From contig NZ_PQWO01000032.1 in the NCBI RefSeq assembly GCF_003231495.1, forward strand, positions 1 through 32,000: a DNA stretch of 32,000 bases, given 5' to 3'. A program made the position numbers and the translations under genes. The DNA comes from Acaryochloris thomasi RCC1774. GTDB taxonomy: Bacteria > Cyanobacteriota > Cyanobacteriia > Thermosynechococcales > Thermosynechococcaceae. The notes under the pieces were generated by a model. The model was given only the letters and a program-made list of their open reading frames with translations, did no database searches and was not told the origin of the DNA. Below are positions 40 through 19,041 of the stretch, piece by piece; the stretch's first letter is position 1, and the number at the start of each line of letters is the position of its first letter.

Positions 40-1266
40 ATGGCTCAGGGATATTCCCATGCCGACCTGACGCGAGATGTGGAGATCAAGGTAGGGGGTC
101 GCAAAGTCTTCGAGGTGGCCGGTGGTAAGGTTCTGCTCAATCAGCTTGGGCCAGAGCAGAATCGCAAGATATCTGTTGATATTCCTGGGATTACCTCAGA
201 TTCAACCCCCGCGCAACCCCAGGCCCAGCGCCCCGAGCAAAGACAACCGGATTTCCCCAGCCAGCCGATAGACGCCGCCGAACGTGCGCGAGCCGAACGG
301 GTGAAAACAAACCCGAATCCCCCCGCTCGCCAGAATGTTGTCTCAGGTCCACCTGTCGCAGGACAACAGGTACCGCTCACTCAGCAGCAAGCGCCTTTGC
401 AGACATTTGATGTGCCCCCCGCGCCAGTTCAGCAGTCGCCCCAGCCGGAGCAGCTTCAGCATTCAGCGCAGAGTGAGCCAAGTCTTTCCATTACGAAATC
501 CGACATTGAGCAAGTTGCTGCTGGTGGCAACCCATCGCTTGCGGTGACGATGGCTCGATATCTGATTGTTCGACAGGAATTGAATGCTGACAAGACGAGA
601 GTGAATCAACCCGGCTTTGAATATCTGCAGCCAAAGATAGACAAAGCCGAGCGTGTCCTTCCTGAAGTCCAGTCAAGGCTTGTGGAGGCGATGAAGGATG
701 CAGGAATTGAGCCAAGGTTTGAGTCTCAGGGGCTTGATATTGGTGCATCTCAGCCGGAGCCAGCCCAAGACTTACCCCAGCCAGTGCAGGAAGTGTCTCA
801 GCCGGAGCCAGCTAGCGCTCTCGACTATCTTCAGGAGTCGGATTCACAGCCAGCCCCCGCTCCGGCTGAGCCAGCCAACGAGATAGTCCAAAGCGTTTCT
901 CTAGATGACCCTGAGCTAAGCGTGAATCTAGAGCCTGCCCCTGAGCCTGGGTCCAGAGCGGATGTTCTTGATGCGGCGCATTACCTTGCCAATCAGTTAG
1001 GGGATCGCGATGGCTCCGGCCAGAAGAGCTTCGAGGGTGCCCACTTCAAGATTGAATCCTATGGTGAAGAGCTGAAAGTCTGGGATGGCAATGGCGACAA
1101 GGTGATCGATATTGACCCTGTTACAAACACCGATACCTATCAACCTAGCCCTGAATTTGCAGATATCCTAACCACTTCAGCCAACGAGCTAGAGCAACAT
1201 CAGTTCGGGCAAGAAGCTGAGCAGGAGCAGGAGATAGACGACGGCTTCGAGTTCGGTGATGACTGA
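40..1266 (+). CDS. Pro/Gln-rich hypothetical protein (possibly 5'-truncated by window edge) carrying the shared C-terminal module and acidic tail
   Basis: 408-aa ORF. The same frame is open from nt 1, so the start may lie upstream of the window. Its stop overlaps the coupling-protein start (GGTGATGACTGA). The last 73 aa (1045-1263) align with the C-termini of 12409..12792 and 27810..28997. Confidence 0.7.
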   Translation: MAQGYSHADLTRDVEIKVGGRKVFEVAGGKVLLNQLGPEQNRKISVDIPGITSDSTPAQPQAQRPEQRQPDFPSQPIDAAERARAERVKTNPNPPARQNVVSGPPVAGQQVPLTQQQAPLQTFDVPPAPVQQSPQPEQLQHSAQSEPSLSITKSDIEQVAAGGNPSLAVTMARYLIVRQELNADKTRVNQPGFEYLQPKIDKAERVLPEVQSRLVEAMKDAGIEPRFESQGLDIGASQPEPAQDLPQPVQEVSQPEPASALDYLQESDSQPAPAPAEPANEIVQSVSLDDPELSVNLEPAPEPGSRADVLDAAHYLANQLGDRDGSGQKSFEGAHFKIESYGEELKVWDGNGDKVIDIDPVTNTDTYQPSPEFADILTTSANELEQHQFGQEAEQEQEIDDGFEFGDD

Positions 1267-2923
1267 TTTTCTTGAAGTTCAACCGTCAGATCCAAGCCTC
1301 GTTAGATATGCCAAGAACAACCCGGCTCGTCTTGGGATGCTTTCGGCCTGTGTCCTGGCTGTCTTATTGCTGCAGGTCTTTGCCGGTCAGACCAAAAAGA
1401 CCAAGCTAGCCAAGGGGCATCTTGCCAAGGGGCTGGAGAAGAAGAACGCCCTAAATCTGATGAAGCAACAGCAGGCGGCAAAGAAGCTGACCAAAACTGC
1501 ATTCAACATCAGACAGCCAGGGCAAAAGGGATTTCTGGCAGTCCCTAATGCCCAGCCAGGGGTACTTGTGCTGGGTTCTCCGGGTGCGGGTAAGACGGCC
1601 TCGGTGATCAACCCGCTAGTGAGATCAGCGATTGACCAGGGCCACCGGATCATCATGTTTGACTGGAAGTATCCAGACCAAGCCTCTCAGCTCGTTCCCT
1701 ATGCAGCGGCGAGAGGGTACAAGCGGATCAATGTGTTTGCCCCTGGCTTTGCTGAGAGCCAGCGTATCAACCCCCTGGACCTAATTGAGAGTCCAGAGGA
1801 TATGATCGGTGCCCAGGAGCTAGCCCTCTCCATCCTGCAAAACGATAGCAAGGTTAATACCGATTCGACGACTCAATTTTTCTTGGATAGCGCCGCGAGT
1901 CTATTGGCTCCCATCTTTTGCGTCGTCAAAGGTTGCCAGTACCCCGATCTGCTGACGGTGTTGATGATTCTGCAATCTGAGAACCTCATCGAACGGCTCA
2001 AGTCAGCGAAGATCGGTCGTTATCAGCGCCTGATGCTGCAGCAAGCCATCGCAACCGCAGGCAGTCCAAAGCAGTTGGCGGGTTTGTTGACCTCGACCAT
2101 CAAGCCTTTGACGAACTTCCTACTGGGCGACAACATGATCAACGCCGTTGTTGGAGCGTCAAGCTTTGATCCAATCCTGAGGCCCAAAGAGATGATCGTC
2201 TTTGGGATGGATCGCAATAATTCCGAAGCCTTGAAGCCGTTGATTGGTTCAACCCTTCGGATGACGATGAAAAATAATTTGTTGAATAAATGTGGTGTTC
2301 CTCTTATCGCTTCTCTAGACGAGCTATCAACCCTGGAACTGCCGATTACAGAATGGCTCAATACAAATCGTTCGGATGGTTTTGTGGGCCTGATCGGTTT
2401 GCAGAATCTAGAACAGTGTGACAAGGACCGCCGCCGCGAGTTGAAGACGGGTTGCCCGACCAAAATGCTCTTCAATCCCAATGATGACGAGACTGCAGAA
2501 ATGTTCTCGAAGTGGCTTGGTAAGGAGCAAGTCGGCACAAAATCCAAAACAGAGGGCTGGAGTTCGGGTAAACGTAGCCGTAGCACTTCCGGTCGAGAGC
2601 AAGCCGTGGATATGTTGCAAGCAGCCGATATTCTGAAGCAGCCCGAGGGTGTTGCCTTGGTCCTCAACAGTGGGCATCGCAATGCAAAAGAAGCGTCGGT
2701 CCCCTTCCGGCATCGCTTCACTTATACCAGTAAAGACGAAGCGCAGGAAGCGAAACTGCAAGGGCTTTGGGAAGAAGCCTGTCTGCCTCGGCTCGTCGGA
2801 CGTGCTCCAGCGATGACGGGCGAAGTCGATGCAATGATTAAGGCCAGACGCAACGAAGCCAAGAAACTTCTAGGAAACCCTGATAAAGGGACACACAGGG
2901 GTCCAAAGGGCGGCAATAAATAG
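1256..2923 (+). CDS. Type IV secretion coupling protein (VirD4/TraG/TrwB family)
   Basis: 555 aa with an N-terminal TM segment (LGMLSACVLAVLLLQVFAG). Walker A is VLVLGSPGAGKTAS and Walker B-like is PLIASLDELSTL. GTG 1256 or ATG 1259 start overlaps the upstream stop. Confidence 0.85.
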   Translation: MMTDFLEVQPSDPSLVRYAKNNPARLGMLSACVLAVLLLQVFAGQTKKTKLAKGHLAKGLEKKNALNLMKQQQAAKKLTKTAFNIRQPGQKGFLAVPNAQPGVLVLGSPGAGKTASVINPLVRSAIDQGHRIIMFDWKYPDQASQLVPYAAARGYKRINVFAPGFAESQRINPLDLIESPEDMIGAQELALSILQNDSKVNTDSTTQFFLDSAASLLAPIFCVVKGCQYPDLLTVLMILQSENLIERLKSAKIGRYQRLMLQQAIATAGSPKQLAGLLTSTIKPLTNFLLGDNMINAVVGASSFDPILRPKEMIVFGMDRNNSEALKPLIGSTLRMTMKNNLLNKCGVPLIASLDELSTLELPITEWLNTNRSDGFVGLIGLQNLEQCDKDRRRELKTGCPTKMLFNPNDDETAEMFSKWLGKEQVGTKSKTEGWSSGKRSRSTSGREQAVDMLQAADILKQPEGVALVLNSGHRNAKEASVPFRHRFTYTSKDEAQEAKLQGLWEEACLPRLVGRAPAMTGEVDAMIKARRNEAKKLLGNPDKGTHRGPKGGNK

Positions 2924-2942: not shown

Positions 2943-2972
2943 ACAGCTTTTATCTCCACTTGCAATAGATCG
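2943..2972 (+). promoter_or_regulatory. Conserved promoter/operator-like box, copy 1 (ACAGCTTTTATCTCCACTTGCAATAGATCG)
   Basis: One of nine copies of the ..ACAGCTTTTT-N6-8-CTTGCAATAGATAGA motif, each upstream of and co-oriented with a gene. Confidence 0.6.
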
Positions 2973-3221
2973 GTATAACCAAACCGACTTAAGCCCAGTG
3001 ATTCATTTCGCTGGCAGTCATTGGCAGAACTCAAATCTGAATAAAGGGCAGACCTTTAACTAGCAATGCCCTCAGAGGAGAGGGAACCACTTTCTACGGA
3101 GTGGTTTGGAGGTTTGATTCCTTCAATTGCTCTAGGTGCTGTGCGGGTCTCCAATCCCCCACAGTTTCCAAAACGATGTCCTTCGGGATGTCAGATCTGA
3201 CAATGAATTGGAGGAAAAATC
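2973..3221 (+). promoter_or_regulatory. Structured 5' leader, copy A (divergent paralogue of copies B and C)
   Basis: Aligns with 5585-5830 and 6840-7090. Contains a tRNA-like element (3062-3132), an anti-SD-loop hairpin (3139-3164), a UUCG hairpin (3176-3191), the palindrome TGTCAGATCTGACA (3189-3202) and SD ATTGGAGG before ATG 3222. Confidence 0.6.
3062..3132 (+). ncRNA. tRNA-like cloverleaf element inside leader A (not a decoding tRNA)
   Basis: Acceptor AGCAAT(G)/AATTGCT pairs 6 of 7. D-arm is CCTC/GAGG. The arm CCACT..C/G..AGTGG is capped by UACG. T-arm is GGAGG-TTTGATT-CCTTC. There is no anticodon loop and no CCA. Confidence 0.4.
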
Positions 3222-4175
3222 ATGTTTCAGTTGAGTGAGAAAGCTCTTGGTGAGACCTTTTGTGAACAAGCGGAGAACAAGGATCTGAGTACACTTCTGG
3301 CGTATCTGCGTTGGACCTTTTCAGGCCCCAATGTCGATATATTCAAGGAGTGGATTAGCCTCCCCAGTTTCTATAGGGACTGGTTTGATTTCGGAGACCG
3401 CAAAAATCTTCGTACTGTTTACAGAAGTCTTCTTCGGGCGAATTCTTGTTTGGCAGAAAGTTGTGAGTGGAGACTAAAGAAATTGTGTGGAAGTGCTGCT
3501 TGTTCTGAGACTGAGCTGACGGTTTATTACTCAGGTATTGCCGAGAGCAATATTGAGTGTGCCGGAGAGCGCAGTGATAGTCAGCCGATGGTATGGCTAG
3601 CTCAGCAATGTATCACTCTATGCGATCATTTGGTTCGCCAAACGTATCTGTTAAAGGAGACCAAGGCGGCGATTGAGGAGGCGGAGCTTTCTGATTGGCT
3701 CAAGGAGCAGTCGGAGACAGAGTGGGAGCCTGTGGCAAGTTCGTTTAACAACGTCTTGTCTCAAGAAGCCCATCCTTCTTTTGAGTCGTTGACGACTGAA
3801 AGTCAGGCGAGTGAGGAGTGTACCGATGAGGAGTGTAGCGACTGTCCTTTTGAGCCGGAGCGTCGGGCAGGTCTTGTAGACTGTCCTGGCGTTCCGTCAC
3901 GTTGCTCATGTGACGAGACGGCGGTATCTGGTGCTGACCCATCAGAGACGCAGGCTCAGGAGAGTGTTCGCCCTGTTGAGAGTAGCGAAAAACCTGCGAA
4001 GGATCTAAATACTCTTTGCTCAGTTTTAGCTATTGCGTTCGGTCTAAGTGCTGGGTTCAACCTGGCTCTGATAGAGGATCGGGTTAATCCCCCGGAAGTA
4101 GAGGCGCACGAAAAGCAGGAGCTGGTGAGTTATGCGAATAGCTTGCTAGTCGATGGCAGAGCGGTTCGTCCGTGA
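3222..4175 (+). CDS. Hypothetical protein (Cys-rich, acidic middle region, C-terminal hydrophobic segment)
   Basis: 317-aa ORF directly preceded by SD GGAGG and leader A. No family recognised. Confidence 0.65.
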   Translation: MFQLSEKALGETFCEQAENKDLSTLLAYLRWTFSGPNVDIFKEWISLPSFYRDWFDFGDRKNLRTVYRSLLRANSCLAESCEWRLKKLCGSAACSETELTVYYSGIAESNIECAGERSDSQPMVWLAQQCITLCDHLVRQTYLLKETKAAIEEAELSDWLKEQSETEWEPVASSFNNVLSQEAHPSFESLTTESQASEECTDEECSDCPFEPERRAGLVDCPGVPSRCSCDETAVSGADPSETQAQESVRPVESSEKPAKDLNTLCSVLAIAFGLSAGFNLALIEDRVNPPEVEAHEKQELVSYANSLLVDGRAVRP

Positions 4176-4194
4176 TGCTTGCACTTCCTAACTA

Positions 4195-5482
4195 GTACTG
4201 TCCGGCATGAATAGAGCCATTATTTAAGCCACGAGCGGTTTCCCCCTGTAAGTCCATTTGAAAGGCTTCGCCATCGTGTGGTTGAAGTACTCCACAAATT
4301 CTAGAATTCTTCGTTTGAGCTGCGCTTGACTTTTGAAGCTCGCACGCCGCAGTAGCTTTCGCACCAGAATGCTGAACCACAGTTCAATTTGGTTGAGCCA
4401 CGAGCAATGCTTAGGGGTGAAATGGACTACCAGTCGATGAGACGGGTTGGTCAAGAACTCAGCTCGCGTGACCATCGATTTGAGAATTCCCCGCTTTCCT
4501 TTAGCCCCCAATTCAATCTGCTCTTCTTCTAATGCAGATGCTAGGCGTACCATCGCCTCTGATTGATGAGTATTGAGACAATCCATCACCAAATGGTACT
4601 TTTTCGCTGCATTGTTTTCCTCAAGGAGACCGCTGACATGAGCCTCCAAATCCTTCTCAGTTCGGGTGTTGTCCACCGTTGCCTTGGCGATTTGGCCACT
4701 GGCGACATTCAAGCTAGCAATTAACGCTTGAGTGCCATGACGAATATATTCAAATTCGCGCTTGACCGGTCGACCCGGCTTCATGGGTATGTCTGGCATG
4801 GTGCGCTCTAGCGCCTGAATCCCTGGCATTTCGTCGAGACTGAAGGTCATCTCTCCCTGCTCAGCCCGTCCTTGAGCGTGCTGGTAGACCTGACAGATAT
4901 CGTCGACCTTGGCTTGGAACTGTGGGTCGGGGGGGATGCAACCAGTAGCGACTCTGGTGCGGCTTGAGGTCTGCTTCTTCCAGCAATCGACCCACATGGC
5001 GTTCACTGATACTCTCGACAATGCCTTGCTTGGTCATCTCAGTGGCTAATTCCCGAGCGCTCCAGTGACTAATAGGGAGACCATATTTCTCCGGTGGGTC
5101 ACAGGCAAGAGCATACAACTGGGTTAGTTGCTCTAAGCTAAATTTGGCAGGACCACCGGGGCGGGGAGCATCTTTAAGACGCTCTTCTACTGATAAATCG
5201 CAATCTGATAACTCTAGCCAACGCCGACGCCATAAGCGACTTGTATCGAGACTAATGCTCAAGGCTCTGGAAATCTCGCCATAGCCTGCGCCGGAGGCGG
5301 ACCGAAGGATGATCTTGGCGCGAAGGGCAATTTGTTGAGGCGTGCTTGACCGTCTCAGCAGCTTTTCTAGGGCTAGCCGGTCTGATTCACTCAACAATAC
5401 TGCCGGGGCCGATAATCTAGGCATCGAAACACTACGCGCTCAACTCCTTCTTGAGGATAGGGCTATTCGTGCCGCTCAGTAC
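4195..5482 (-). mobile_element. IS630-family insertion sequence
   Basis: Imperfect terminal inverted repeats: GTACTGTCCGGCATGAATAG (left end) against the reverse complement GTACTGAGCGGCACGAATAG (right end), 17/20 matches. Both ends are flanked by TA (4193-4194 and 5483-5484). Encodes an HTH plus DDE_3-type transposase. Confidence 0.85.
4224..5424 (-). CDS. IS630-family transposase in two overlapping frames (4861..5424 HTH part; 4224..5021 DDE part)
   Basis: N-terminal HTH, with DDE-like residues in SLDEMPG, LVMDCLNTH and WLNQIELWF. The frames meet at a C7 tract (G7 on plus strand, 4929-4935). Removing one C gives ..YWLHPPDPQFQAKV.. Confidence 0.85.
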
Positions 5483-5512
5483 TAGTCTCAATCACACCGT
5501 AGAAATAGCAAT

Positions 5513-5543
5513 CGCTCTCAGGGTAAAACCTGGGGGCGTTTTT
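5513..5543 (+). terminator. Rho-independent terminator of the conserved 3' cassette module
   Basis: CGCTCTCAGGG-TAAAA-CCTGGGGGCG followed by TTTTT. Preceded by the conserved CACACCGTAGAAA. The same module occurs at 6767-6801 and 7474-7506. Confidence 0.7.
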
Positions 5544-5551
5544 GTTTGAAT

Positions 5552-5584
5552 ACAGCTTTTTTCACGACTTGCAATAGATAGATA
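5552..5584 (+). promoter_or_regulatory. Conserved promoter/operator-like box, copy 2
   Basis: ACAGCTTTTTTCACGACTTGCAATAGATAGATA. Confidence 0.6.
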
Positions 5585-5830
5585 TACACCAAACCGACGT
5601 AAGCCCAGCGATTCATTTTGCTGGCTGTCACAGGTTCCAACTAGCCGAATAAAGGGCGTTTCATTCATTTGCGATTGTCCTCGGTGGGAGGAGCCATTCT
5701 ACGGAGTGGTTAGGGGTTCGATCCCTCCAATTGCTCTAGGCACTGCACGGGCCTCCAATCCCCTGCATTTGCCAAAGCGATGTCCTCCGGGATGTCAGTA
5801 CTGACATTAACTAAATTGGAGAATCGAACG
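5585..5830 (+). promoter_or_regulatory. Structured 5' leader, copy B
   Basis: Nearly identical to copy C over its central ~140 nt. Contains a tRNA-like element (5670-5736), an anti-SD-loop hairpin (5744-5767), a UCCG hairpin (5780-5795), the 16-bp palindrome ATGTCAGTACTGACAT (5792-5807) and SD ATTGGAGA before ATG 5831. Confidence 0.65.
5670..5736 (+). ncRNA. tRNA-like cloverleaf element inside leader B
   Basis: Acceptor (T)GCGATT/AATTGC(T) pairs 6 of 7, including one G-U. D-arm is CCTC-GGTGG-GAGG. The 6-bp arm CCATTC/GAGTGG is capped by UACG. T-arm is (A)GGGG-TTCGATC-CCTC(C), matching the canonical T-loop. No anticodon loop, no CCA. Confidence 0.45.
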
Positions 5831-6517
5831 ATGACTAACGCAACTAATAACGACGCGATCGCCAAGTTGACTCGCAACTCTTTAATCGAGGGCATGTGCA
5901 AACATGCTTCCCAGCATTCTGAAAAGCCAATCGCCAACGCGAAGGGTCTCAGGAACTGGGTCATCGCGACTTACTACGATGAGACCAATGCCGAAGTCGG
6001 TGGTCTTAACGGGTTCGCGCATGACTTGAACTATAAGGCTGTGAGTTTTCGGAAGCGTGAGCATTGCGAAAAGTTGTTTCGTCTATTGTCTGCCGATGCC
6101 TCCGGGTTGACGCAGCGAAAGGCGAAAGTTCAGTCAAAAGGCGGCGGTCGGTTGACGTGGGCAAAAGCCGTACGCGGCGTTGTCTATTTCATTGCGGACC
6201 ATGCAGAAGCTGCAAAAGCGGCTGTAGATGATATCCCAGATTCCGAGCTTAAATTAACGAGCATGAAGTCTGTGAGGAGTCTACAGAGCGCCCTGCAATC
6301 CCGGATTGAAAGCCACAGTGATGATCCTGTCGTCACTTTGCGGGCTGAGATTTACCAGTTGGTAGGGGTCAATACCGAAGACGATCTGCGGCAGTGGTTG
6401 AAAGACCAGTTTGCTCCAGAGGAAGCTGAGGCTATTGATGCTTGGGACTTTAGCAAACATTCGGACCTGCTGACGGTTCAGCGGATTGCTTTAGGTATGC
6501 AACAACAGGAGGCGTAG
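5831..6517 (+). CDS. Hypothetical protein
   Basis: ATG 5831 follows SD TTGGAGAAT. The track start at 5780 lies inside the conserved leader and is unlikely. 228 aa. The C-terminal ~55 aa resemble the product of 6519..6746. Confidence 0.7.
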   Translation: MTNATNNDAIAKLTRNSLIEGMCKHASQHSEKPIANAKGLRNWVIATYYDETNAEVGGLNGFAHDLNYKAVSFRKREHCEKLFRLLSADASGLTQRKAKVQSKGGGRLTWAKAVRGVVYFIADHAEAAKAAVDDIPDSELKLTSMKSVRSLQSALQSRIESHSDDPVVTLRAEIYQLVGVNTEDDLRQWLKDQFAPEEAEAIDAWDFSKHSDLLTVQRIALGMQQQEA

Positions 6518-6518
6518 C

Positions 6519-6746
6519 ATGAGCAGCGAGACAGTCTACCTACCCGGAGACCCCGTTGCCGTGCTCCGTGGCCAAATAGAAAGGGTGGTCAAGCCCCAGG
6601 GTGAGACATTTGCAGAAGCGGTGAGGCGATGGCTAATAGCCGAGCATTACCCGCATTATGCAGAGAACTTTGATCCAGATAGCTATATGGATCTGGTGCA
6701 GGTGGAAACCTGTATCAAAGCGAAGTTCTACCCTCTCTATAACTAA
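6519..6746 (+). CDS. Small hypothetical protein (75 aa)
   Basis: ATG lies 1 nt after the upstream stop. The pattern DPV..LRGQI..V....E.....RRWL...DL..V resembles the C-terminus of 5831..6517. Confidence 0.6.
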   Translation: MSSETVYLPGDPVAVLRGQIERVVKPQGETFAEAVRRWLIAEHYPHYAENFDPDSYMDLVQVETCIKAKFYPLYN

Positions 6747-6766
6747 CCACACCGTAGAAACAATAA

Positions 6767-6801
6767 GCGCTCTCAGGGTTAAACCTGGGGGCGCTTTTTT
6801 T
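6767..6801 (+). terminator. Rho-independent terminator of the conserved 3' cassette module
   Basis: GCGCTCTCAGG-GTTAAA-CCTGGGGGCGC followed by T7. Preceded by CCACACCGTAGAAA (6747-6760). Confidence 0.75.
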
Positions 6802-6806
6802 GCGCT

Positions 6807-6839
6807 CGACAGCTTTTTTGCCCACTTGCAATAGATAGA
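6807..6839 (+). promoter_or_regulatory. Conserved promoter/operator-like box, copy 3
   Basis: CGACAGCTTTTTTGCCCACTTGCAATAGATAGA. Confidence 0.6.
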
Positions 6840-7090
6840 CATACACCAAACCGACTTAAGCCCAGTGATTCATTTCATTGGCGGTCATGGGTTCCAACTA
6901 GCCGAATATAGGGCGTTTCATTCATTTGCGATTGTCCTCGGTGGGAGGAGCCATTCTACGGAGTGGTTAGGGGTTCGATCCCTCCAATTGCTCTAGGCAT
7001 TGCACGGGCCTCCAATCCCCTGCATTTGCCACCGCGATGTCTCGCAAGAGATGTCAGTACTGACAAAAAACAAAATTGGAGAATCGAATC
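6840..7090 (+). promoter_or_regulatory. Structured 5' leader, copy C
   Basis: Contains a tRNA-like element (6927-6993), an anti-SD-loop hairpin (7001-7024), a hairpin ATGTCTC-GCAA-GAGATGT (7037-7054), the palindrome TGTCAGTACTGACA (7052-7065) and SD ATTGGAGA before ATG 7091. Confidence 0.65.
6927..6993 (+). ncRNA. tRNA-like cloverleaf element inside leader C
   Basis: Sequence identical to copy B across the cloverleaf. Confidence 0.45.
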
Positions 7091-7473: not shown

Positions 7474-7506
7474 GCTCTCAGGGTCATACCTGGGAGCATT
7501 TTTTTT
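7474..7506 (+). terminator. Rho-independent terminator of the conserved 3' cassette module
   Basis: GCTCTCAGG-GTCATA-CCTGGGAGC followed by a T8 run. Preceded by CCACACCGTAGATA (7453-7466). Confidence 0.7.
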
Positions 7507-7511
7507 CGCTT

Positions 7512-7544
7512 CGACAGCTTTTTGCCCCACTTGCAATAGATAGA
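7512..7544 (+). promoter_or_regulatory. Conserved promoter/operator-like box, copy 4
   Basis: CGACAGCTTTTTGCCCCACTTGCAATAGATAGA. Followed by a different ~200-nt leader that shares only TAAGCCCAG and CAATTGCTC with leaders A-C. Confidence 0.6.
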
Positions 7545-7745
7545 TATCACAACCAACTTGTTTGGCGCATAAGCCCAGCAGATTAGTTTTTGTTGGCAGA
7601 GAGTCGGTGCGTAACCCGACTCATATTTTCAAGCCACTTAGAGCAATTGCTCAGCGATCGCTCCGAGTGGGGAGAGAAGGCCGTTGGTCTGCTAAGGCAT
7701 AGCCTTCGATTGCTGGAAACACCCAAGTCAGTCGGAGGACGACCA

Positions 7746-7985
7746 ATGGCAATTCCAGCGCACATCTGGAACAAGCACTTTCCTGAGAGTAATGCTGTGG
7801 TGCCCGAGCCGCAGTATGCGATCGGCGAGGAGGTTTACCTGAAACTTTGCCCAGAGAGGAGGTTTATCGTGATTCGGAACTACATAGCCTACGAACAACC
7901 GACGTCAGCCGGTGAGCGATGGCTAGAGTTATCGAGCTGCGATCGTCCTGCTTTCTGGAAAGAGAATCAGCTCCAGCGTGTGTAG
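7746..7985 (+). CDS. Small hypothetical protein (79 aa)
   Basis: ATG 7746 is preceded by a strong SD (GGAGGACGACCAATG). The track start at 7590 lies in the leader and is unlikely. Confidence 0.6.
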   Translation: MAIPAHIWNKHFPESNAVVPEPQYAIGEEVYLKLCPERRFIVIRNYIAYEQPTSAGERWLELSSCDRPAFWKENQLQRV

Positions 7986-8050
7986 ACGATAGGAGCCTGT
8001 GGTTATTCCACGGGTTCCTATGACCACCGTAATAAATATTGGAGAATGAA

Positions 8051-9140: not shown

Positions 9141-9450
9141 TTTCTTCGGCATAGCATCAAGGCGATTGTTGGGTCTCGTTGAGCAAATGGCTGATGAGTC
9201 CAGTGAATCTGCTGTGGCTATTCTAAGGTCGCCAGACTTGCGAGATCGCCTTGTTTCTTCTGACGATGGCGTGGTTTTGGAGACCCAGATTAGGCCGGAT
9301 GGCATTCATCGGACTGTACTTGGTTCCGATAAGAATTTTTTCGCGAATATTGCCTCCGGTCCTGGTCGCAACACCTTCGATGGGATCGTGGCTGGTGCAT
9401 TGAGGTTGGTAAGTGAGAGCGATGGAGAAGGAGTGCGACCATGCAGATAG
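9133..9450 (+). CDS. Small hypothetical protein (105 aa)
   Basis: ATG 9133 (MSDFFGIASRR..). The upstream part of the track ORF (from 8971) looks non-coding. The 3' end overlaps the next start by 10 nt. Confidence 0.5.
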   Translation: MSDFFGIASRRLLGLVEQMADESSESAVAILRSPDLRDRLVSSDDGVVLETQIRPDGIHRTVLGSDKNFFANIASGPGRNTFDGIVAGALRLVSESDGEGVRPCR

Positions 9451-10973
9451 TGGTACAGAAAATAGGTGACAGCAGCGTTTTGGTGACACCTGACGGCCAG
9501 CCAATCCCATACGTTGATTGTGACGATTGGACGCTTCATTTGATGCCCCAGATTTTGATAAACAGTCGGGTTTCCTCCGTCTCTCTGATTAGGGCGAATC
9601 TGAAGTTGAGGAATGATGGCGCAGGTCCATTAGGGTTGCCGCATTTTACCTTTCATAACGTCCTGCCCATCGACGTTCAGATCACTCAGCCCTTCCCTAA
9701 CGAGAGCTTTTATGTCGCTGGGAGTGTTGATCGCAAGATGGGTTGGGAGTTTCCATTGCTAGAGAATCAGACCTGGGCCGAATTGTCTTTAACTTGGGAA
9801 GTTGATCAGAATCAGCCTTGGACGATCCATCACCGCATCAGATTCAATTTGGAGCATACACAGCAGGGTCATCTCTTCTCAATGGCGAGTGCCAACACTA
9901 TGTTTGGCATCAATTCTCAAAATGCGAAGGCGATCGCGCACTTCGATGAATCATCACTGGGTCATACATTCGCGAAAAGCGATGATTCGTTTCACTGCAG
10001 ATTTGATAAAAGTCACTTCCGTATTGATTTTGAGCAGACACTTGACCTCCAAAGCCATGCCTGGAGTGACGTGCCCCACCTTGAGTTGCTTGAGAATCAA
10101 ACCCAGCTCCACAATATCGAGCCAGCTACAACGTTTTCGACCTATCGCAAAGAGCATCTTTCTTGTGCTTGTTTAGAGATCCCCTCTGACGTTTTGCTTG
10201 AAGCCGTAGAAGATGCGCGACAAGAGACTCATTCATTGTCAGCGGGTCAGTACCACACTTCAAAAGCAGTGCGAAAGATTTGCGACTGGTGGAACCAGAA
10301 TGCCCCGGTCGAATCCTTTCGCCATGCGGGAGGCGTCGAGATTTGGTGTCGGGTCGAAGATGGTCCTGAATATTGGTCGGCTCAGGAGGAACGACCTGAA
10401 ACAGATATCAAGTGCCTCTTAAAGCTAGACCCGAACACCTGTGCCCGTTTTGGCGATCACTTTTTGATTTACTTCCTAGAGAAGCCATCGGAGAATCGCA
10501 TCGACGATAACGATACTCGCTATATCAACTATGTCGATGGAACAAGTTGCACGAATATCTGGGATGAAGTCGAATATAGCTACTTCTCTTGGCAGAGCTT
10601 GTCTGTACTTCCTACGATGTTTCCGGTTGCTTATGAGCAAGTGTTGGCTAAGGGATACAGCCTTACTTCGCCAGAGCGTTTAATTTCTCAGTACCAGAGT
10701 GGAGAGCGTCGTTTTCCGATCCTCGCGCTAAGAGGCGCTAACTTTTCTGGGATGGATTTACGAGGCATCGATTTATGGGAGAGCGATCTGCGGGGTGCCA
10801 ATTTTAGTGGTGCGAACCTTGAAGGTGCATGTCTGGTGGGTTGTGATTTGCGAGGGGTAGATTTCTCGTATGCCAATCTATCGCGCACTGATCTTCGTAA
10901 TGTGTGGATTAAAGCCACGAATCTCTATGGGGCCAATCTAGAGGGGGCAGATCCTTGGCCTCCAGGTGCTTAA
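9441..10973 (+). CDS. Large hypothetical protein with a C-terminal pentapeptide-repeat domain
   Basis: 510 aa with SD GGAGAAGGAG. The C-terminus reads YQSGERRFPILALRGANFSGMDLRGIDLWESDLRGANFSGANLEGACLVGCDLRGVDFSYANLSRTDL.. (A(D/N)LxX repeats). Confidence 0.8.
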   Translation: MQIVVQKIGDSSVLVTPDGQPIPYVDCDDWTLHLMPQILINSRVSSVSLIRANLKLRNDGAGPLGLPHFTFHNVLPIDVQITQPFPNESFYVAGSVDRKMGWEFPLLENQTWAELSLTWEVDQNQPWTIHHRIRFNLEHTQQGHLFSMASANTMFGINSQNAKAIAHFDESSLGHTFAKSDDSFHCRFDKSHFRIDFEQTLDLQSHAWSDVPHLELLENQTQLHNIEPATTFSTYRKEHLSCACLEIPSDVLLEAVEDARQETHSLSAGQYHTSKAVRKICDWWNQNAPVESFRHAGGVEIWCRVEDGPEYWSAQEERPETDIKCLLKLDPNTCARFGDHFLIYFLEKPSENRIDDNDTRYINYVDGTSCTNIWDEVEYSYFSWQSLSVLPTMFPVAYEQVLAKGYSLTSPERLISQYQSGERRFPILALRGANFSGMDLRGIDLWESDLRGANFSGANLEGACLVGCDLRGVDFSYANLSRTDLRNVWIKATNLYGANLEGADPWPPGA

Positions 10974-11026
10974 GAACCATGTATTGAGATATTTGTGTCA
11001 ACAACAAGTTTGGAGAATGTGAACGT

Positions 11027-11644
11027 ATGCAATCAACTAATGCCAAAGCCTCTACGCCAGTTGACGAGATCCTTCTGCCAGCTCAGGCTGCGGCGTTCCT
11101 GGGTGTGACGGAGGAGCAGTTGCACAATGCTGTGTGCCAGGGTTATCTACCTGGGGCTTGCATTGATGGTCAGTGGCGGTTTAGCAAGCGCGGGCTGAGT
11201 AAGTTCTGCTGGCAAAGAAACAATCACAACGGTTCCGCGCCCTGGCTTGAGAACTCCTGTGGTCCCTACTGGTTGGGCGATTGGGCTGAACAAAAGGCAA
11301 AAGGTGTGATCGAGGCTTATGAGGCAGGGGAAAGATACTTCCCTGGACTCTCCATAAAAGGTGGACGTTTTGATGGTCAGGATCTTAGTGGTATTGATTT
11401 TTGGGAGTCCGGCTTGAAGGGTGCAAGCTTTTCTGGATGTATTCTCAAGCAGGCCATTTTTGTTGGTGCGGATCTTACCTCAGCCGTATTCAGGAATGCA
11501 GATCTATCCGATGCAAACCTTGAGGGAGCTGTGGTTGAGGATGCTGACTTCAGTGGAGCTATCCTGAATCGGACTAACTTTGCGGTCAGCTTGATGAGTG
11601 GAGCAAAGCTAGATGGAGTCAGTATCAGCATGGTCTCCTTCTGA
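11027..11644 (+). CDS. Excisionase-type HTH fused to a pentapeptide-repeat domain
   Basis: The N-terminus LPAQAAAFLGVTEEQLHNAVCQGYLPGACIDGQWRFSKRGL has an excisionase/MerR-like HTH pattern. It is followed by YEAGERYF and pentapeptide repeats. Confidence 0.75.
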   Translation: MQSTNAKASTPVDEILLPAQAAAFLGVTEEQLHNAVCQGYLPGACIDGQWRFSKRGLSKFCWQRNNHNGSAPWLENSCGPYWLGDWAEQKAKGVIEAYEAGERYFPGLSIKGGRFDGQDLSGIDFWESGLKGASFSGCILKQAIFVGADLTSAVFRNADLSDANLEGAVVEDADFSGAILNRTNFAVSLMSGAKLDGVSISMVSF

Positions 11645-11716
11645 CGGTTCGACTCTTGTGAGCAACAGTATTCACCCCGGTTCATTTTCGTTCTTTGTGT
11701 CTGGAACTGAGTTTAT

Positions 11717-12388
11717 TTGTGTAATGTAGTTGGAGCATGGCAGCTAGTGGAGTTAATCGACAGAAGCATTGCTGTGTCAGGGTCGAGTGAGATAAACCTT
11801 GAAGATGCTATATCCCTAATTAGTCTGGACAAAGAGCATATCCTCTCTGATGTAGGTAGGGGGAGGATAAAGGCAACTCGTGTGAATGGTGAATGGATGT
11901 TCGATCGTCAGGATTTATGTGTCTATCAGTACTACTACTATCCAGATTGTGATCAGTTAGAGCCATCAACTCTCTCTTTCCCGACGCCTTTGACCCCGGA
12001 GTCTGTATGGCGTGAGTACCAGCGAGGAGCGAGAGATTTCTCTTGCAGAGCAGTGAGCAACAATGCTGATTTTTCGTGTAAGTCATTGCCAGAAATTGAC
12101 TTTAATTATTCAAAGCTTGCGGGTGTTAACTTTGAAGGCTCAGACCTGAGGCAAGCCAACTTTCGCGATGCCAATATGTTTAGGGTCAACATGAGAAATA
12201 CAAAGCTGGCTGGGGCTAGCTTTGAGGGCGCTGAACTGCGAATCGTAGACTTCTCTGGTGCAGACCTAACCAATGTTAATTTCGGTGGTTCAAAAATCGG
12301 AAAGATTCAGCTCCAAGACGCAATCATTCGGAACACCCAGTTTTTCGAGGGAATTCTGTTGACAACAGTAAAGCCAGATTATCGGTAG
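11717..12388 (+). CDS. Excisionase-type HTH fused to a pentapeptide-repeat domain (start uncertain: TTG 11717 or GTG 11747)
   Basis: ISLDKEHILSDVGRGRIKATRVNGEWMFDRQDL, then YQRGARDF and repeats (VNFEGSDLRQANFRDANMFRVNMRNTKLAGASFEGAEL..). Confidence 0.75.
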   Translation: MCNVVGAWQLVELIDRSIAVSGSSEINLEDAISLISLDKEHILSDVGRGRIKATRVNGEWMFDRQDLCVYQYYYYPDCDQLEPSTLSFPTPLTPESVWREYQRGARDFSCRAVSNNADFSCKSLPEIDFNYSKLAGVNFEGSDLRQANFRDANMFRVNMRNTKLAGASFEGAELRIVDFSGADLTNVNFGGSKIGKIQLQDAIIRNTQFFEGILLTTVKPDYR

Positions 12389-13777: not shown

Positions 13778-16700
13778 TCAATACTCAAACCCTTCCTCTT
13801 GCTCCATTTCATACTCATGAGCCGCAAGCTCCTTCTCCAGCCAGGGACTTTCCTGCGCCCATTCATCCAGTGTCGAATAGCTCAAGTCGCTCAACTGATT
13901 ACCCCGCGCCAGCCAGTCGTCGATCCCCAGCTTGCCCTGGTCATTCCCTGGCATCTCGGCCACCTCCACCTTGGCTCCCTGTTGCTCTAGCAGCCGACCG
14001 AACCGATGCATTGCGATGGCAACATTCCGTAGTGTCTTGGTCTTCTCCGGTGGATCTTTGTCGAAGCACAGCACCACCGTCCGGCTCTGCCAGTTGTATT
14101 GCTTGAGATGTCCATCGAGATACCGCTGCTCATTGTCATCTTTGCTGTAGCCCCCATTGACGCCATTGAGAGCAATCGCATCAATACCCCTGGTATAGAT
14201 TGCAGCGCCCTTCTTGGCCCCTTCAGTAATCCAGACTTCCTTGGTTTCGTTCTTGATGTCATCGAGATCCTTGGCAAAGGCAAAGTGACTGCGGTGTGAG
14301 GGCAGGTTTTGTGACGCCTTTGGAATAGACTCGTACTTGCGTTCTTTCAGCTCTGGCTTGTAGTTTGCAGGCTTTTCCAGGTTCTGCACCTGACCATTTT
14401 TCAGGTAGATGGTGAAGCGATCCTTGTCCTTCTCCTCAGTGACGGGTGTATTAGGCTTGAGTTGCCCCCACGGTTCGCCATTGAACGGCCTGCCTTCACA
14501 CCAGAGTCCGCCCGCTTCAAGATGCTCGTATCGAGCTAAGAACTTTTCTACCTGAGCTGTGGTGTATTGGGTGCCGTGGCCTGCGAATTGCCCCATCGCG
14601 TAGTTGAGTAAATGTTCCTTGGCCCCTGGCCCATCGAGAGACCAGAAATACTTCGCAGCCACTTGGGGATGGATTGATGAATCTTTGACCAGCTCCACCC
14701 ACCGCTCTTTCTCGATGTAAGTGGGTCTCAGGTATTCCAGCGCTTGCAATCTCTGTGTTGTCCACACTCGTCCTGTCTTTTCTGTTGACTGCTGTGGAGC
14801 TTCGTTAGCTACTTGAGCTTCAGCCTCCAGCCTGTCCTTCTTCAGTACCGGCTTTTCAACTTGTGGCTGAGTCGGTGGCTGGGTGGGTTGCCTATCCTTC
14901 TTCAGTACTGGCTTCTCCACCACAGGTTTTGCCTTCTTCTGAGGTTTGGGTGTGACATCAATGCCCATATTCCGCATCTGCTCCGTTAATCTCTGCAGCT
15001 CCTCTCTCGACACCTCAGGATTGGACCTGAGTGTCTGAACGAGCAGAGCCAATCGCTGTACATCGGCCTGCTGCTCAATCCAGTTTTCAACGTGATCGCC
15101 TAGGCCCACAAAGACCTGCATGTGTTCGGCTATGGCATCCTGTTGCTGGGTCTCGTGAATCGCCTTAGCTAGCTCCTGCACCCCTTCAAGAGAAGGCTGC
15201 TGCCTCGTCATCTGCTCTAGGCTATGGCCCACATGGTTGAGCTTATCGGTGAGGCCCGACTCTAGCAGTGTCCCCACGTCGGCCTGCTGTTGAATTAGCT
15301 CAGCCAACTCAGCCATCTGTGGGTACTGCATCCACTGTTCCAACCTGCCGCTGACTTCAGTGATGACCTCAGCCACCTGCTCCATTGCTTGCTGTTTGGT
15401 GATGACCTCTGCCAACTGTTCGATGCCATGTTGTCCTCTGAGACGATCCATCACGCCCGAGAACTCAGCGGCCACCTCAGCAATGAGCTGTTGCTCCTGC
15501 CAGCCGTGTAATGCCTCCGCTAACTCCTGCACCTGTGGCCTGACGGTTGACGGTCCCGTGAACTCCCGAAGTAGCTCCATCACCTGAGCTTGATCGCCTG
15601 CAGCCATCGCCTCCACCATGCGCTGTTCGTTGGTCCACTGCCCCACAGCGTTAGTGATGTGATCTGCCACCCCTTTTGTGAGGCTCTGGTCAATCTGTAG
15701 CTGCAGAGCATCAAGCGTCTCTGAGATGAGGGGCAACGACTCAGCAAAGGTTTGTTCGATGTCACCTGAATGAATCACTTCAGCTAGTTCTTCTATACCC
15801 TCGAAAGTGATTCCTGATGGTCTTTGGTTCTCAACGACGCTAGCTAGCTCCTGCAGCTTTTCACCTAAGCCAGATTCAGCGATTACCTGCAGGTCCGCAT
15901 TCGTCTGAATCGCATCGGCGAGTTCAACGAGATTGTGATTCTGGCTTAGGTGCTGCAAGCGTTCTCCAAGTGCGGCACCCACCTCCAGCATGACCGCTTC
16001 AGCTTGGTTGTGTGAGATCGCATCTGCGAGTGAATCAATGGAGCTTGAGAGATCAGGTTGATGAACCTTCTCTTGAGCCAGCTCCAGTGATTTGTCGATG
16101 GTCAGTCCTAACTTTTCTAGCGCCTGATTGATGCCCGGTAGCGTTTCCGCCAATACTTCCTGAGCATTAAAAGTATTGATGTCGTTGGCTAGTTCGTTGA
16201 TGGAGCGTTTGAGGGCTGCATCTGATTGGTCTCTAGAGACGTTGGCAGGCTCGCCGTATCCGGTAGATCGATCGTCAGTGATGAGCGACCCGTTAGCCCG
16301 TGCCGCTTCAACTCTCCCACTAAGTCTTGCAACTGCTCCATCCAGTCTTGATTGGTGCCCAGCATCGAGACGTTGTTGAGCTGCGCGTCGTTGATTTGGG
16401 TCATCAAAGCGTCGAGCCTTCCGTAAAGCTGCTTGATGCTCTGGGCTAGGTCGTCGTTCTTCTTGCCCTTCAGCGCTTCGCTCAGTGCTTCGGTGAACTC
16501 CATCAGATGCCCGTTGAGAACCACTGGCATTGTATTCATCGACTGATTGACCAATTGATGCACCTTCTTGTGTCTGGCTTCGTTGTTCTCGTTGAGCTGT
16601 TGATTGTGCTGGATCAAGAGCCGATTCTGTTGCTCGACTGACATCAACCGTCCGTTGGCTGTCTCCAACTGCCTGCTTATGGTTTGGTTCTGCTTCTCGA

Positions 16701-17782: not shown

Positions 17783-17815
17783 TCATCTATTGCAAGTGGC
17801 CGAAAAAGCTGTCGA
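17783..17815 (-). promoter_or_regulatory. Conserved promoter/operator-like box, copy 5 (drives the relaxase)
   Basis: Minus strand reads TCGACAGCTTTTTCGGCCACTTGCAATAGATGA. The box ends ~24 nt before relaxase ATG 17761. Confidence 0.6.
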
Positions 17816-17816
17816 A

Positions 17817-17846
17817 GCCCCAGTTTTTTCTAACGTGCTCTGGGGC
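17817..17846. other. Inverted repeat GCCCCAG-N16-CTGGGGC abutting box 5
   Basis: 7-bp perfect arms. The position relative to the box mirrors the terminator-plus-box arrangement of the plus-strand cassettes. Confidence 0.4.
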
Positions 17847-17900
17847 GTAATCCTTATGCAGTCTTTGTCTTACCGCCTTCCTTTCTTTTTCCGTGTTTTG

Positions 17901-18774: not shown

Positions 18775-19041
18775 ATGACAGAGTTAAGACCTCACACAAC
18801 CCTCTTATTGTTAGAGCTTATATGGGAAGGAACCTACATACGACCATCCGCTCAACGTGATTGGGTAGAGCAGAACTTTGAACGTCTTCAACTGCTGCTT
18901 GAGAAGCAGGCTTACACCAAGGTCTGTGAACAATTTGCTGATGAGATTCAAATCAGTCCCGCAACGCTGTCCAAGCATTACAAAGCAACGAAGAAAAATA
19001 AACGCTGGCAGCGAGGAAAACCTCGTCGCCAGGATAGATAG
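18775..19041 (+). CDS. Small basic-tailed protein, putative DNA-binding (paralogue of 19113..19532)
   Basis: 88 aa. RDWVEQNFERLQLLLEKQ..ISPATLSKHYKATKK aligns with HHQWVEKHFALLQDMIEKQ..LSPQTLQKHYQAVKK. Confidence 0.65.
   Translation: MTELRPHTTLLLLELIWEGTYIRPSAQRDWVEQNFERLQLLLEKQAYTKVCEQFADEIQISPATLSKHYKATKKNKRWQRGKPRRQDR

Follow-up and report, generated by a model that had tools for sequence, protein, structure and literature searches.

Why would a mobile element carry the same long non-coding stretch several times, each time directly ahead of a small gene? The question is raised by positions 5,585 to 5,830 of a stretch of DNA from Acaryochloris thomasi RCC1774, the whole of which (32,000 nt) is called the window below, and for which an initial annotation, made from the letters alone, had proposed a structured leader RNA in three copies. 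The best explanation overall, to which we assign a probability of about 0.6, is a two-fold translational switch: the leader would gate translation initiation at the gene behind it through two mutually exclusive folds, one holding the Shine-Dalgarno sequence (SD) in a long-range helix and the other closing a tRNA-shaped four-way junction. It is likely that the leader works at the RNA level and sequesters the SD; that the cloverleaf state is functional is a tentative proposal with chances a little short of even; and that the tRNA mimicry itself is read by a factor is unlikely.

Alignment placed three copies of the leader where the annotation had put them, A at 2975-3221, B (the focal copy) at 5588-5830 and C at 6845-7090. 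The three were 81-93% identical (B and C 93% over 233 nt, A and B 81% over a 97-nt 3' block), with a mean column identity of 86% in a MAFFT alignment. A fourth copy had been missed. This copy, D, is shorter and more divergent (7548-7745, followed by ATG 7746) and has the same terminator, the same promoter and a recognisable core (nhmmer E = 1.6e-33). All four lie behind the gene of a TraG/TrwB-type coupling protein (type IV coupling protein, T4CP), of which only two close relatives were found, with 49% and 44% identity. The 44% relative is encoded on an 11.6-kb stromatolite metagenome contig (L002), where four cassettes come after it, every one headed by a homologous leader (m1-m4); three of these leaders precede orthologues of window genes (36%, 32% and 62% protein identity). 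Another metagenome contig (L006) has one D-type leader, L6, ahead of an 84%-identical orthologue. The results below refer to this family of nine leaders, 200-300 nt in length: wA-wD from the window, m1-m4 and L6. Copies A, B, C, m1 and m2 make up the long type, and wD, m4, L6 and m3 the short type. MAFFT applied to all nine misaligned the short type near the T arm, and a local-pair alignment with hand-checked strand tables was used; formal covariation counts were made on an ungapped alignment of the strands extracted from the four core helices.

The structure belongs to the transcript of the plus strand and not to the duplex DNA. This had been claimed in the annotation, and it was borne out by the G·U pairs and by the fold scores of the two strands over the nine leaders. 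RNA fold z-scores on the plus strand were -3.5 for B, -3.2 for A and -3.1 for C, and the minus strand of B scored -1.5. Across the family the plus-strand z-score ranged from -2.6 to -6.0 and was always better than that of the minus strand, with a minimum free energy (MFE) 7-23 kcal/mol lower on the plus strand. G·U pairs accounted for 61 of the 454 helix pairs, a count biased by the definition of the helices on the plus strand, and many substitutions between copies were steps from G-C to G-U to A-U, in which pairing is kept only in the plus sense. When folded as DNA, neither strand did better than its shuffles (z = -0.68 and -0.86).

The fold best supported over the nine leaders consists of a long hairpin, HL, and an 8-11 bp long-range helix in which the strand CCUYCRAUUG pairs with the SD. 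This fold, state I, is the predicted ground state. Its elements in leader B, together with those of the alternative fold (state II), are as follows.

5588-5830, plus strand: leader B, the focal copy, with an RNA MFE of -87.7 kcal/mol
5603-5625, plus strand: hairpin H1, GCC-C-AGCGA/UUGCU-GGC with a conserved loop GAUUC/GAUUA; six distinct strand pairs, all complementary, across the family
5641-5687, plus strand: HL, 5' strand 5641-5658 (CUAGCCGAAUAAAGGGCG) and 3' strand 5676-5687 (UGUCCUCGGUGG), with compensatory A-U/G-C changes
5671-5736, plus strand: the cloverleaf of state II, given by ARAGORN at relaxed thresholds as tRNA-???
5671-5677 with 5728-5734, plus strand: P1, the closing helix of the cloverleaf
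5678-5692, plus strand: Pa, the 'D arm'
5694-5709, plus strand: Pb, the UACG hairpin
5713-5727, plus strand: Pc, the 'T arm'
5716-5732, plus strand: anti-SD strand GUUCGAU-CC-CUCCAAUU, made up of the T-loop, the Pc 3' strand and the start of the P1 3' strand
5744-5767, plus strand: hairpin Hb with the loop CCUCCAAU, a covarying stem and a conserved, anti-SD-like loop
5779-5796, plus strand: hairpin Hc, GAUGUCC-UCCG-GGAUGUC, with two G·U pairs (-9.4 kcal/mol)
5793-5806, no strand assigned: perfect 14-nt palindrome TGTCAGTACTGACA, overlapping Hc
5814-5833, plus strand: SD strand AAUUGGAG-A-AUCGAAC, the SD and the spacer up to the AUG, then ATG 5831

The strongest covariation was found in HL. Seven different sequence pairs, all of them complementary, build its outer stem (CCGA/UCGG, CUG/CAG, UUCAAU/AUUGGA, ACCA/UGGU, CCACUU/GAGUGG, CUCAAUAG/CUGUUGGG and UCC/GGA); the equivalent in L6, CCCAAG/CUUGGG, is continuous with the core. 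The cognate strands of HL paired better than in any of the other 40319 partner permutations (1/40320). The long-range helix can form in nine of the nine leaders, with 8-11 bp and -14 to -20 kcal/mol, the pairing of T-loop and spacer included. In the MFE structure of leader B it joins 5716-5732 to 5814-5829 (duplex -19.3 kcal/mol) and encloses Hb and Hc. One of its positions varies between A-U, G-U and G-C, and at several others only one strand has changed. The 'T-loop' UUCGAU of the long type forms additional pairs with the AUCGAA that adjoins the AUG, and leader A has a compensatory change here, from UUCGAU to UUUGAU in the T-loop and from AUCGAA to AAUCA in the spacer. Sequestration of the SD, as the annotation had proposed it, stood, with an anti-SD helix available in every leader; the main anti-SD is not the loop of Hb, however, but the second copy of CUCCAAUU, at the 3' edge of the cloverleaf.

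In the predicted ensembles the SD core GGAG was at least 93% paired in seven of the nine leaders, and in six it was paired to the anti-SD at close to 100% from 15 to 45 °C. Pairing to the anti-SD was 100% in leader C. In wB at 37 °C, GGAG was 93% paired, 72% to the anti-SD, and the share of the anti-SD went from 99% to 59% over 15-45 °C. An RNA thermometer of the ROSE or fourU kind was considered and rejected, the predicted SD pairing being about 1.0 at 15-45 °C in six of the nine leaders and falling only from 1.00 to 0.89 in wB.

The alternative fold is made from the same strands. In the cloverleaf of state II, P1 and Pa draw their 5' strands from the 3' strand of HL, and the 3' strands of Pc and P1 come from the anti-SD; the cloverleaf is therefore incompatible with both HL and the SD helix. 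Each of the nine leaders can form HL, P1 and the anti-SD helix, and the strands shared among the three give the pattern of a 1:2/3:4 versus 2:3 switch. The annotation had combined SD sequestration with a cloverleaf; both exist, but as mutually exclusive alternatives. The anatomy given there held for the D, T and UACG arms ((U)CCUC/GAGG(A), CCAUUC-UACG-GAGUGG and GGGG-UUCGAUC-CCUC) and for the lack of CCA; the closing helix P1, GCGAUUG/CAAUUGC, for which 6/7 had been given, pairs 7/7 in B and C, one G·U included. The cyanobacterial HIP1 palindrome GCGATCGC supplies the 5' strand of the closing helix in most members (for example at 4278-4285 of L002); in the window copies A-C HIP1 is degenerate (GCGATTGT or GCAATGCC, for example at 5671-5678).

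P1 forms in nine of the nine leaders with 7-9 pairs, and all five of its variable positions preserve pairing: U-A is replaced by C-G at one, and C-G, A-U and U-G alternate at another. The permutation test of its cognate partners gave 336/40320. In Pc one position passes through G-C, A-U and G-U; since the G that faces it in the SD helix does not vary, only the hairpin accounts for the change. When the four core helices were taken together, 87.6% of cells were paired, and the covariation score was 0.229 against 0.174 ± 0.014 for shuffles, none of 500 of which reached it. Five pairs changed on both sides, a number reached by 14 of 500 shuffles, and registers slid by one to three columns gave 30-50% paired. 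Judged from these sequences, the covariation support for the 2:3 (cloverleaf) state is real but modest. With each fold enforced, the energies of cloverleaf and SD helix were -89.9 and -87.3 kcal/mol in A, -83.7 and -87.7 in B, and -83.1 and -88.2 in C, differences (cloverleaf minus SD helix) of -2.6, +4.0 and +5.1 kcal/mol. Copies A-C are thus predicted to be close to bistable, and in all three the nascent RNA, when transcribed as far as the end of P1, has the cloverleaf as its MFE structure.

Between the anti-SD and the SD the long type carries two more hairpins. Hb, which had been described as presenting YCUCCAAU, was confirmed: its stems are UGCA-C-GGG in B, CUGUG-C-GGG in A and CUGUA-C-GGG in L002, and the loop is conserved. 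The duplex of the loop with the SD comes to about -9 kcal/mol (-9.1 in B) versus -14 to -20 for the main anti-SD, and the short type is without Hb. The loop may serve as a second anti-SD through a pseudoknot, or as a trans-acting seed. The switch of tetraloop and the longer stem reported for Hc were also found, GAUGUCC-UYCG-GGAUGUC changing to GAUGUCUC-GCAA-GAGAUGUC by a compensatory C-G to U-A exchange and an extra pair, with two G·U pairs per copy. The palindrome TGTCWGNNCWGACA overlaps Hc as claimed and measures 14 nt; there are three copies versus 0.38 expected by chance, and it stays perfect through its changes (a GTAC or GATC centre; TGTCTGATCAGACA in m2 of L002). The RNA hairpin that it could form is weak (-3.2 kcal/mol) and loses out to Hc (-8 to -10 kcal/mol). 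A role at the DNA level is possible.

The two-fold switch would operate as follows. Each leader would be transcribed from a promoter-like motif, would precede its own small orphan-gene cassette and would gate translation initiation by two exclusive folds. In state I (OFF), segments 1 and 2 would form HL, and segment 3 (CCUYCRAUUG, with UUCGAU in the long type) would pair with segment 4, which is the SD AUUGGAG and the spacer up to the AUG. In state II, segment 2 would leave HL and pair with segment 3, closing the four-way, tRNA-shaped junction; the anti-SD would be tied up in its 'acceptor' and 'T arm', leaving the ribosome-binding site free. The cloverleaf is the candidate ON state because it consumes the anti-SD. 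We infer that state II forms and means ON, and likewise where transcription starts. There are three candidate triggers: the cloverleaf might be trapped during transcription, a protein or RNA might bind the 5' domain or HL, or a tRNA-recognising enzyme (RNase P/Z) might cut the anti-SD from the SD.

Several points weigh against this proposal. The predicted ensembles of wA and m1 do not use the anti-SD helix. In the six leaders other than A-C, state I is favoured over the cloverleaf by 3.4-23 kcal/mol, and it already has the advantage when the SD has yet to be transcribed; HL is transcribed first, and by these models state II may rarely form in those six without a factor. If the loop of Hb also binds the SD as a pseudoknot, a structure outside the model of the folding tools, state II need not be ON. 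The statistics come from nine sequences on three elements, paralogues and orthologues together, so that covariation is confounded by relatedness and the helices were defined on the same sequences on which they were scored. A scan with the sigma-70 consensus does not flag the promoter-like motif, and both the promoter and the start site are ones that we infer. The proteins downstream of the leaders had no match in Pfam, PHROGs, PADLOC or PDB sequence searches, and without a known function they offer no biological rationale for a signal.

Three further mechanisms were tried and rejected. Transcription attenuation would need a terminator, and none is conserved inside the leader, wD alone having a terminator-like hairpin. 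Kissing of the H1 and H2 loops gave inconsistent energies, and none in wD. As for a leader peptide, leader B has no ATG before 5780, a position downstream of segments 1-3, and no short open reading frame (ORF) is conserved between copies.

The class of mechanism, translational control by alternative structures, is known. In the ermC and cat translational attenuation leaders four segments pair as 1:2 and 3:4, with the SD sequestered, or as 2:3, with the SD free. The present leaders share this alternative pairing, the control of translation initiation and the lack of a terminator. They differ in that the first ~190 nt of leader B contain no AUG and no short ORF is conserved, and ribosome stalling cannot be the trigger since there is no leader peptide; their 2:3 state, moreover, is a four-way junction. 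Translational riboswitch platforms such as the add adenine riboswitch are bistable 5' untranslated regions (UTRs) in which an anti-SD strand is shared between folds below a structured 5' domain, all of which applies here as well. The differences are that no known aptamer was found (Rfam 15 gave no match) and that the leader is present in several copies on a plasmid, ahead of unrelated orphan genes and not of a metabolic gene. In the rpoS leader, which responds to DsrA and RprA, and in the hok fold-back, inhibitory long-range helices are opened in trans. There, as in the present leaders, an upstream strand (~90 nt away) pairs with the SD and the start region, and activation needs removal of that strand; here no cognate small RNA was found, and the competitor of the anti-SD is internal (segment 2 and the cloverleaf).

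tRNA-like structures occur in other transcripts, among them the thrS operator, the MALAT1 mascRNA, YrlA, tmRNA and the tRNA-like structures of viruses, and several are read by RNase P/Z or by synthetases. Like these, the leaders place a cloverleaf with a canonical T arm on an acceptor-like helix in a non-tRNA transcript; unlike them, they have a tRNA-like fold that competes with an SD-sequestering helix, an anticodon arm capped by UACG, no CCA and a T-loop that is not conserved across the family. The tRNA-shaped domain might itself be the functional core, with cleavage by RNase P/Z or binding of a tRNA factor freeing or locking the anti-SD and so activating translation. We consider this unlikely, although it is the best of the rival explanations. 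At thresholds of 95% and 90% the only ARAGORN matches on both strands of the 32-kb window were 5671-5736 and 6928-6993, with 3062-3132 at 90%, that is, the three cloverleaves that the annotation had pointed out, all given as 'tRNA-???' and marked as having an abnormal anticodon loop. The long type has a canonical T arm, GGGG-UUCGAUC-CCUC, there is a GG in the 'D loop', and the 3' strand of the T stem continues directly into the acceptor 3' strand, as in tRNA. The status of the cloverleaf as MFE structure of the nascent A-C transcripts speaks for the same idea, as does a match of 17.2 bits to the Rfam tRNA-Sec model that lies exactly on the cloverleaf of m2, versus a gathering score of 47.

Against it, ARAGORN at default thresholds found no tRNA gene in the window or in the nine leaders, and the Rfam tRNA clan models, with nothing at gathering thresholds, gave no window match even at E ≤ 10. 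Relaxation to 80% added m1 and m2, which are called at no stricter threshold; these two calls are background, because at 80% the window alone gives 25 matches. In place of a 7-nt anticodon loop there is a 6-9 bp stem capped by UACG or CUAC (A-C) or by a 3-nt loop (wD, m4, L6), and there is no CCA. A 7-nt T-loop (UUCGAUC, UUCGAUU or UUUGAUU) is found in the five long-type leaders; the four of the short type have AUA, AUU or CUAGU and keep the four-way junction with 3- or 5-nt loops. The bases of the long-type T-loop are, in addition, constrained by their pairing with the spacer between SD and AUG, which explains them too. The element is therefore tRNA-like in shape in five of nine members and is not a tRNA; the resemblance may be put to use, by RNase P/Z or a tRNA-binding protein, or may be a mark of ancestry. 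It is doubtful, to the point of being improbable, that the ON state is a genuine tRNA mimic read by a host factor (RNase P/Z, another tRNA-binding protein or the ribosome) and so founds a new class of riboregulator; if it were, the orphan genes of the plasmid would be switched on together by the state of tRNA processing or translation in the host, for example on arrival in a new cell.

The conserved loop of Hb on its covarying stem raises another possibility, that the leader acts in trans as a small RNA, either whole or as a processed 5' fragment, with its loop CCUCCAAU binding AUUGGAG sites of other plasmid or host mRNAs. The energy of the loop:SD duplex would allow this, and AUUGGAG is the ribosome-binding site of other window genes, for example at 8040-8046. 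The idea is nevertheless improbable: no terminator or processing signal lies between leader and gene, and the short type dispenses with Hb yet keeps the anti-SD helix.

Much the same low standing, or a lower one, belongs to the view that the copies have no structural function and are decaying tRNA-derived repeats or duplicated promoter-UTR blocks, such as remnants of tRNA attachment sites or homology blocks for cassette shuffling. The tRNA-like cloverleaf agrees with this view, the 93% identity of B and C could reflect gene conversion, the cassettes of the window and of L002 stand in different orders, and the repeats are where assemblies break. It is contradicted by the compensatory changes that preserve the helices, by the SD complementarity kept in nine of nine leaders despite their sequence differences, and by the pattern of divergence. 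Paralogous leaders within one plasmid are 72-76% identical and orthologues between plasmids 73-75%; because the former are as diverged as the latter, the sequences indicate that the copies are old and maintained. The core of the long type is 73-75% identical between plasmids, and the coding DNA behind it is 54-57% identical in nucleotides and 32-36% in protein; in the D type the coding sequence is conserved as much as the leader. We therefore regard decay as very improbable. The order of cassettes in L002 (3990-7120) puts the C-type gene first, and in short-read assemblies (L006-L008) the break comes ~235 nt upstream of that of the D type; the leader repeats are probably the points at which both recombination and assembly breaks occur.

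In F-like and IncI plasmids, Frpo/ssi are repeated folded elements ahead of leading-region genes (PMC11541004), and the present leaders resemble them as multi-copy folded non-coding elements of ~300 nt before small genes of a conjugative plasmid (3-4 copies of 250-300 nt before small unknown genes). A Frpo/ssi-like single-stranded-DNA promoter that drives early genes from the transferred strand is nonetheless the least probable explanation and was rejected, since the DNA of either strand folds no better than shuffles, the helices rely on G·U pairs that are A·C mismatches on the template strand, no sigma-70-like -35/-10 hexamer pairs lie inside the leaders or their stems, upstream lies a duplex promoter motif that the relaxase and other operons have as well, blastn found no similarity to any PLSDB plasmid, F-like ones included, and the putative origin of transfer (oriT) at 17817-17846 would make the plus strand the transferred one, with the leader genes on the wrong strand and in the region transferred last.

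The two-fold switch thus keeps its place as the preferred reading, in a family that is apparently undescribed. The annotation had recognised no described family, and Rfam 15 agreed, with no match in the window at gathering thresholds or at E ≤ 10, riboswitches and T-boxes included, and the low-scoring tRNA-Sec match on m2 as the only exception among relatives. In blastn (word size 11) a leader had no match in 72,556 PLSDB plasmids or in a phage collection. Scans of genome, metagenome and viral contigs with the exact patterns TCTACGGAGTGG..CAATTGCTCTAGG and GGTTYGATYCCTYCRATTGCTCTAGG, and with a slightly shorter variant of GGTTYGATYCCTYCRATTGCTCTAGG, gave 0 hits. The looser pattern AGCGATCGCTC-N25-55-CCTYCGRTYGCT gave 10 metagenome loci, which were rejected as chance, nhmmer finding nothing in them and their sequences being unrelated. 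No leader copy was found on contigs with more distant T4CP relatives (34-49%; L001, L009-L012), or on L003-L005, where the T4CP is that of L002 itself; a PLSDB plasmid of Gloeothece (L023) has short palindromic operators instead. In all DNA fetched, nhmmer with the nine-sequence alignment returned only the nine known copies. The family is real but rare, with three sources in collections of billions of sequences, and this rarity limits its reach. What is new is the family, together with the reuse of a tRNA-like alternative fold as a module before several cassettes of one plasmid. If the switch is as proposed, it would be an undescribed cis-regulatory RNA family, repeated before unrelated cassettes of one mobile element, and would layer a post-transcriptional regulon on a plasmid-wide promoter; it would also be a four-segment switch with a tRNA-shaped alternative fold and neither leader peptide nor known aptamer, and because both are lacking, its trigger (a ligand, protein, RNase or kinetic timer) would be new biology. 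It would give a first handle on the control of orphan genes in the hardly studied conjugative plasmids of cyanobacteria.

The other three window leaders are laid out as follows.

2975-3221, plus strand: leader A, long type, then ATG 3222
2993-3015, plus strand: H1 of leader A
3037-3049 with 3068-3075, plus strand: HL of leader A
3062-3132, plus strand: cloverleaf alternative of leader A
3118-3128 and 3206-3216, plus strand: anti-SD and SD strand of leader A
3139-3164, plus strand: Hb of leader A
3175-3192, plus strand: Hc of leader A
3189-3202, plus strand: palindrome of leader A
6845-7090, plus strand: leader C, long type, then ATG 7091
6928-6993, plus strand: cloverleaf alternative of leader C
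6972-6989 and 7074-7090, plus strand: anti-SD and SD strand of leader C
7001-7024, plus strand: Hb of leader C
7036-7055, plus strand: Hc of leader C
7052-7065, plus strand: palindrome of leader C
7548-7745, plus strand: leader D, short type, then ATG 7746
7573-7597, plus strand: H1 of leader D
7601-7622, plus strand: H2 of leader D
7634-7644 with 7660-7670, plus strand: HL of leader D
7652-7660 with 7707-7715, plus strand: P1 of leader D
7694-7706, plus strand: Pc of leader D, AAGGC-AUA-GCCUU
7703-7712, plus strand: anti-SD of leader D, CCUUCGAUUG
7729-7738, plus strand: SD strand of leader D, CAGUCGGAGG

The second hairpin of leader D (7601-7622, GAGTCGG-TGCGTAAC-CCGACTC) is followed by ATATTTTCAA and has a terminator-like score; it is not conserved in the L002 orthologue.

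The leaders belong to four transcription units (A-D) of common design directly 3' of the T4CP gene, each with a promoter-like motif, a long non-coding stretch, an AUUGGAG-type SD and a small gene, and in B, C and D with an intrinsic terminator in front.

2943-2978, plus strand: promoter-like motif of unit A (ACAGCTTTT..ACTTGCAATAGAT..TATAA), 20 nt after the T4CP stop (2923)
5513-5538, plus strand: intrinsic terminator closing the upstream unit, directly before unit B
5552-5587, plus strand: promoter-like motif of unit B, with a putative transcription start at ~5587-5590
6765-6796, plus strand: intrinsic terminator before unit C
6809-6844, plus strand: promoter-like motif of unit C
7474-7497, plus strand: intrinsic terminator before unit D
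7514-7549, plus strand: promoter-like motif of unit D

The putative start of unit B near 5588 is placed by the -10-like sequence TAGATA. The motif ACAGCTTTTT-N5-6-ACTTGCAATAGAT occurs in eight copies in the window versus 0.83 expected. It can also be written ACAGCTTTTT-N5-6-(A/T)YTTGCAATAGAT and precedes eight operons, that of the relaxase included, at 2943, 5552, 6809 and 7514 (plus strand), 17785-17797 (minus strand), and 18734, 23282 and 25601 (plus strand). One copy lies 24 nt upstream of the relaxase ATG, and others precede the ORFs at 18775, 23324 and 25655, where the leaders measure just ~20-40 nt. A long leader is present behind only four of the eight copies. Because the other copies have such short leaders, the long leader is a module separate from the promoter repeat and specific to the four cassettes behind the T4CP gene. 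The homologous leaders of L002 carry a different, canonical promoter (TTGGCT-17-TATACT), so promoter and leader modules are separable. By analogy with kor and R388-type networks, the eight motif-bearing operons may answer to one global regulator. An 88-aa candidate gene (18775-19041) lies directly behind one motif copy. The terminator hairpin CGCTCTCAGGGTWAAACCTGGGGGCG is conserved at its three window positions and in L002 at 6005-6035 and 6834-6864.

The window is part of a conjugative plasmid or of an integrative and conjugative element, and carries a T4CP, a TrwC relaxase and ArdC. It comes from a 39.3-kb contig, on which the focal ORF 5831-6517 is C1752_10441.

1256-2923, plus strand: TraG/TrwB-type T4CP
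3222-4175, plus strand: first gene of unit A, a distant paralogue of the unit B gene
5831-6517, plus strand: 228-aa orphan protein C1752_10441 (ATG 5831), first gene of unit B
7746-7985, plus strand: 79-aa protein behind leader D, for which 5.8 billion proteins yielded just two homologues
9441-12388: a run of three pentapeptide-repeat proteins that separates the relaxase from the leader cassettes; one of the three has an HTH_17 domain at its N terminus
13778-17761, minus strand: TrwC relaxase, 1327 aa
20933-21793, minus strand: ArdC

Units A and B, like m2 (gene at 5106-5771) and m3 (gene at 6290-6817) in L002, begin with genes that are distant paralogues of one another, and the proteins have in common an N-terminal region with the motif ...YVFD.QHGN..L.....L.EL.... 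For the 79-aa protein, one of five AlphaFold models (pLDDT, predicted local distance difference test, 72) gave a weak SH3/Tudor/KOW-like beta-barrel with Foldseek E > 0.05, a weak hint of such an identity.

A candidate oriT at 17817-17870, immediately upstream of the promoter of the TrwC relaxase, consists of the inverted repeat GCCCCAG/CTGGGGC (17817-17846) followed by GTAATCCTTATGCAGTCTTTGTCT; after the repeat the plus strand reads GTAATCCT...TTTGTCT. Because the repeat sits beside the relaxase promoter in a TrwC-type system, this putative position points to the plus strand as the one transferred, with the leading region to the right. Under that geometry ArdC, on the minus strand, is on the leading side and on the expected strand, and the leader genes, on the plus strand, are at the end transferred last. 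Between the unit A gene and unit B lies an insertion sequence of the IS630 family (4192-5424, minus strand), with two overlapping ORFs, HTH (4861-5424) and DDE_3 (4224-5021), that are probably joined by a frameshift.

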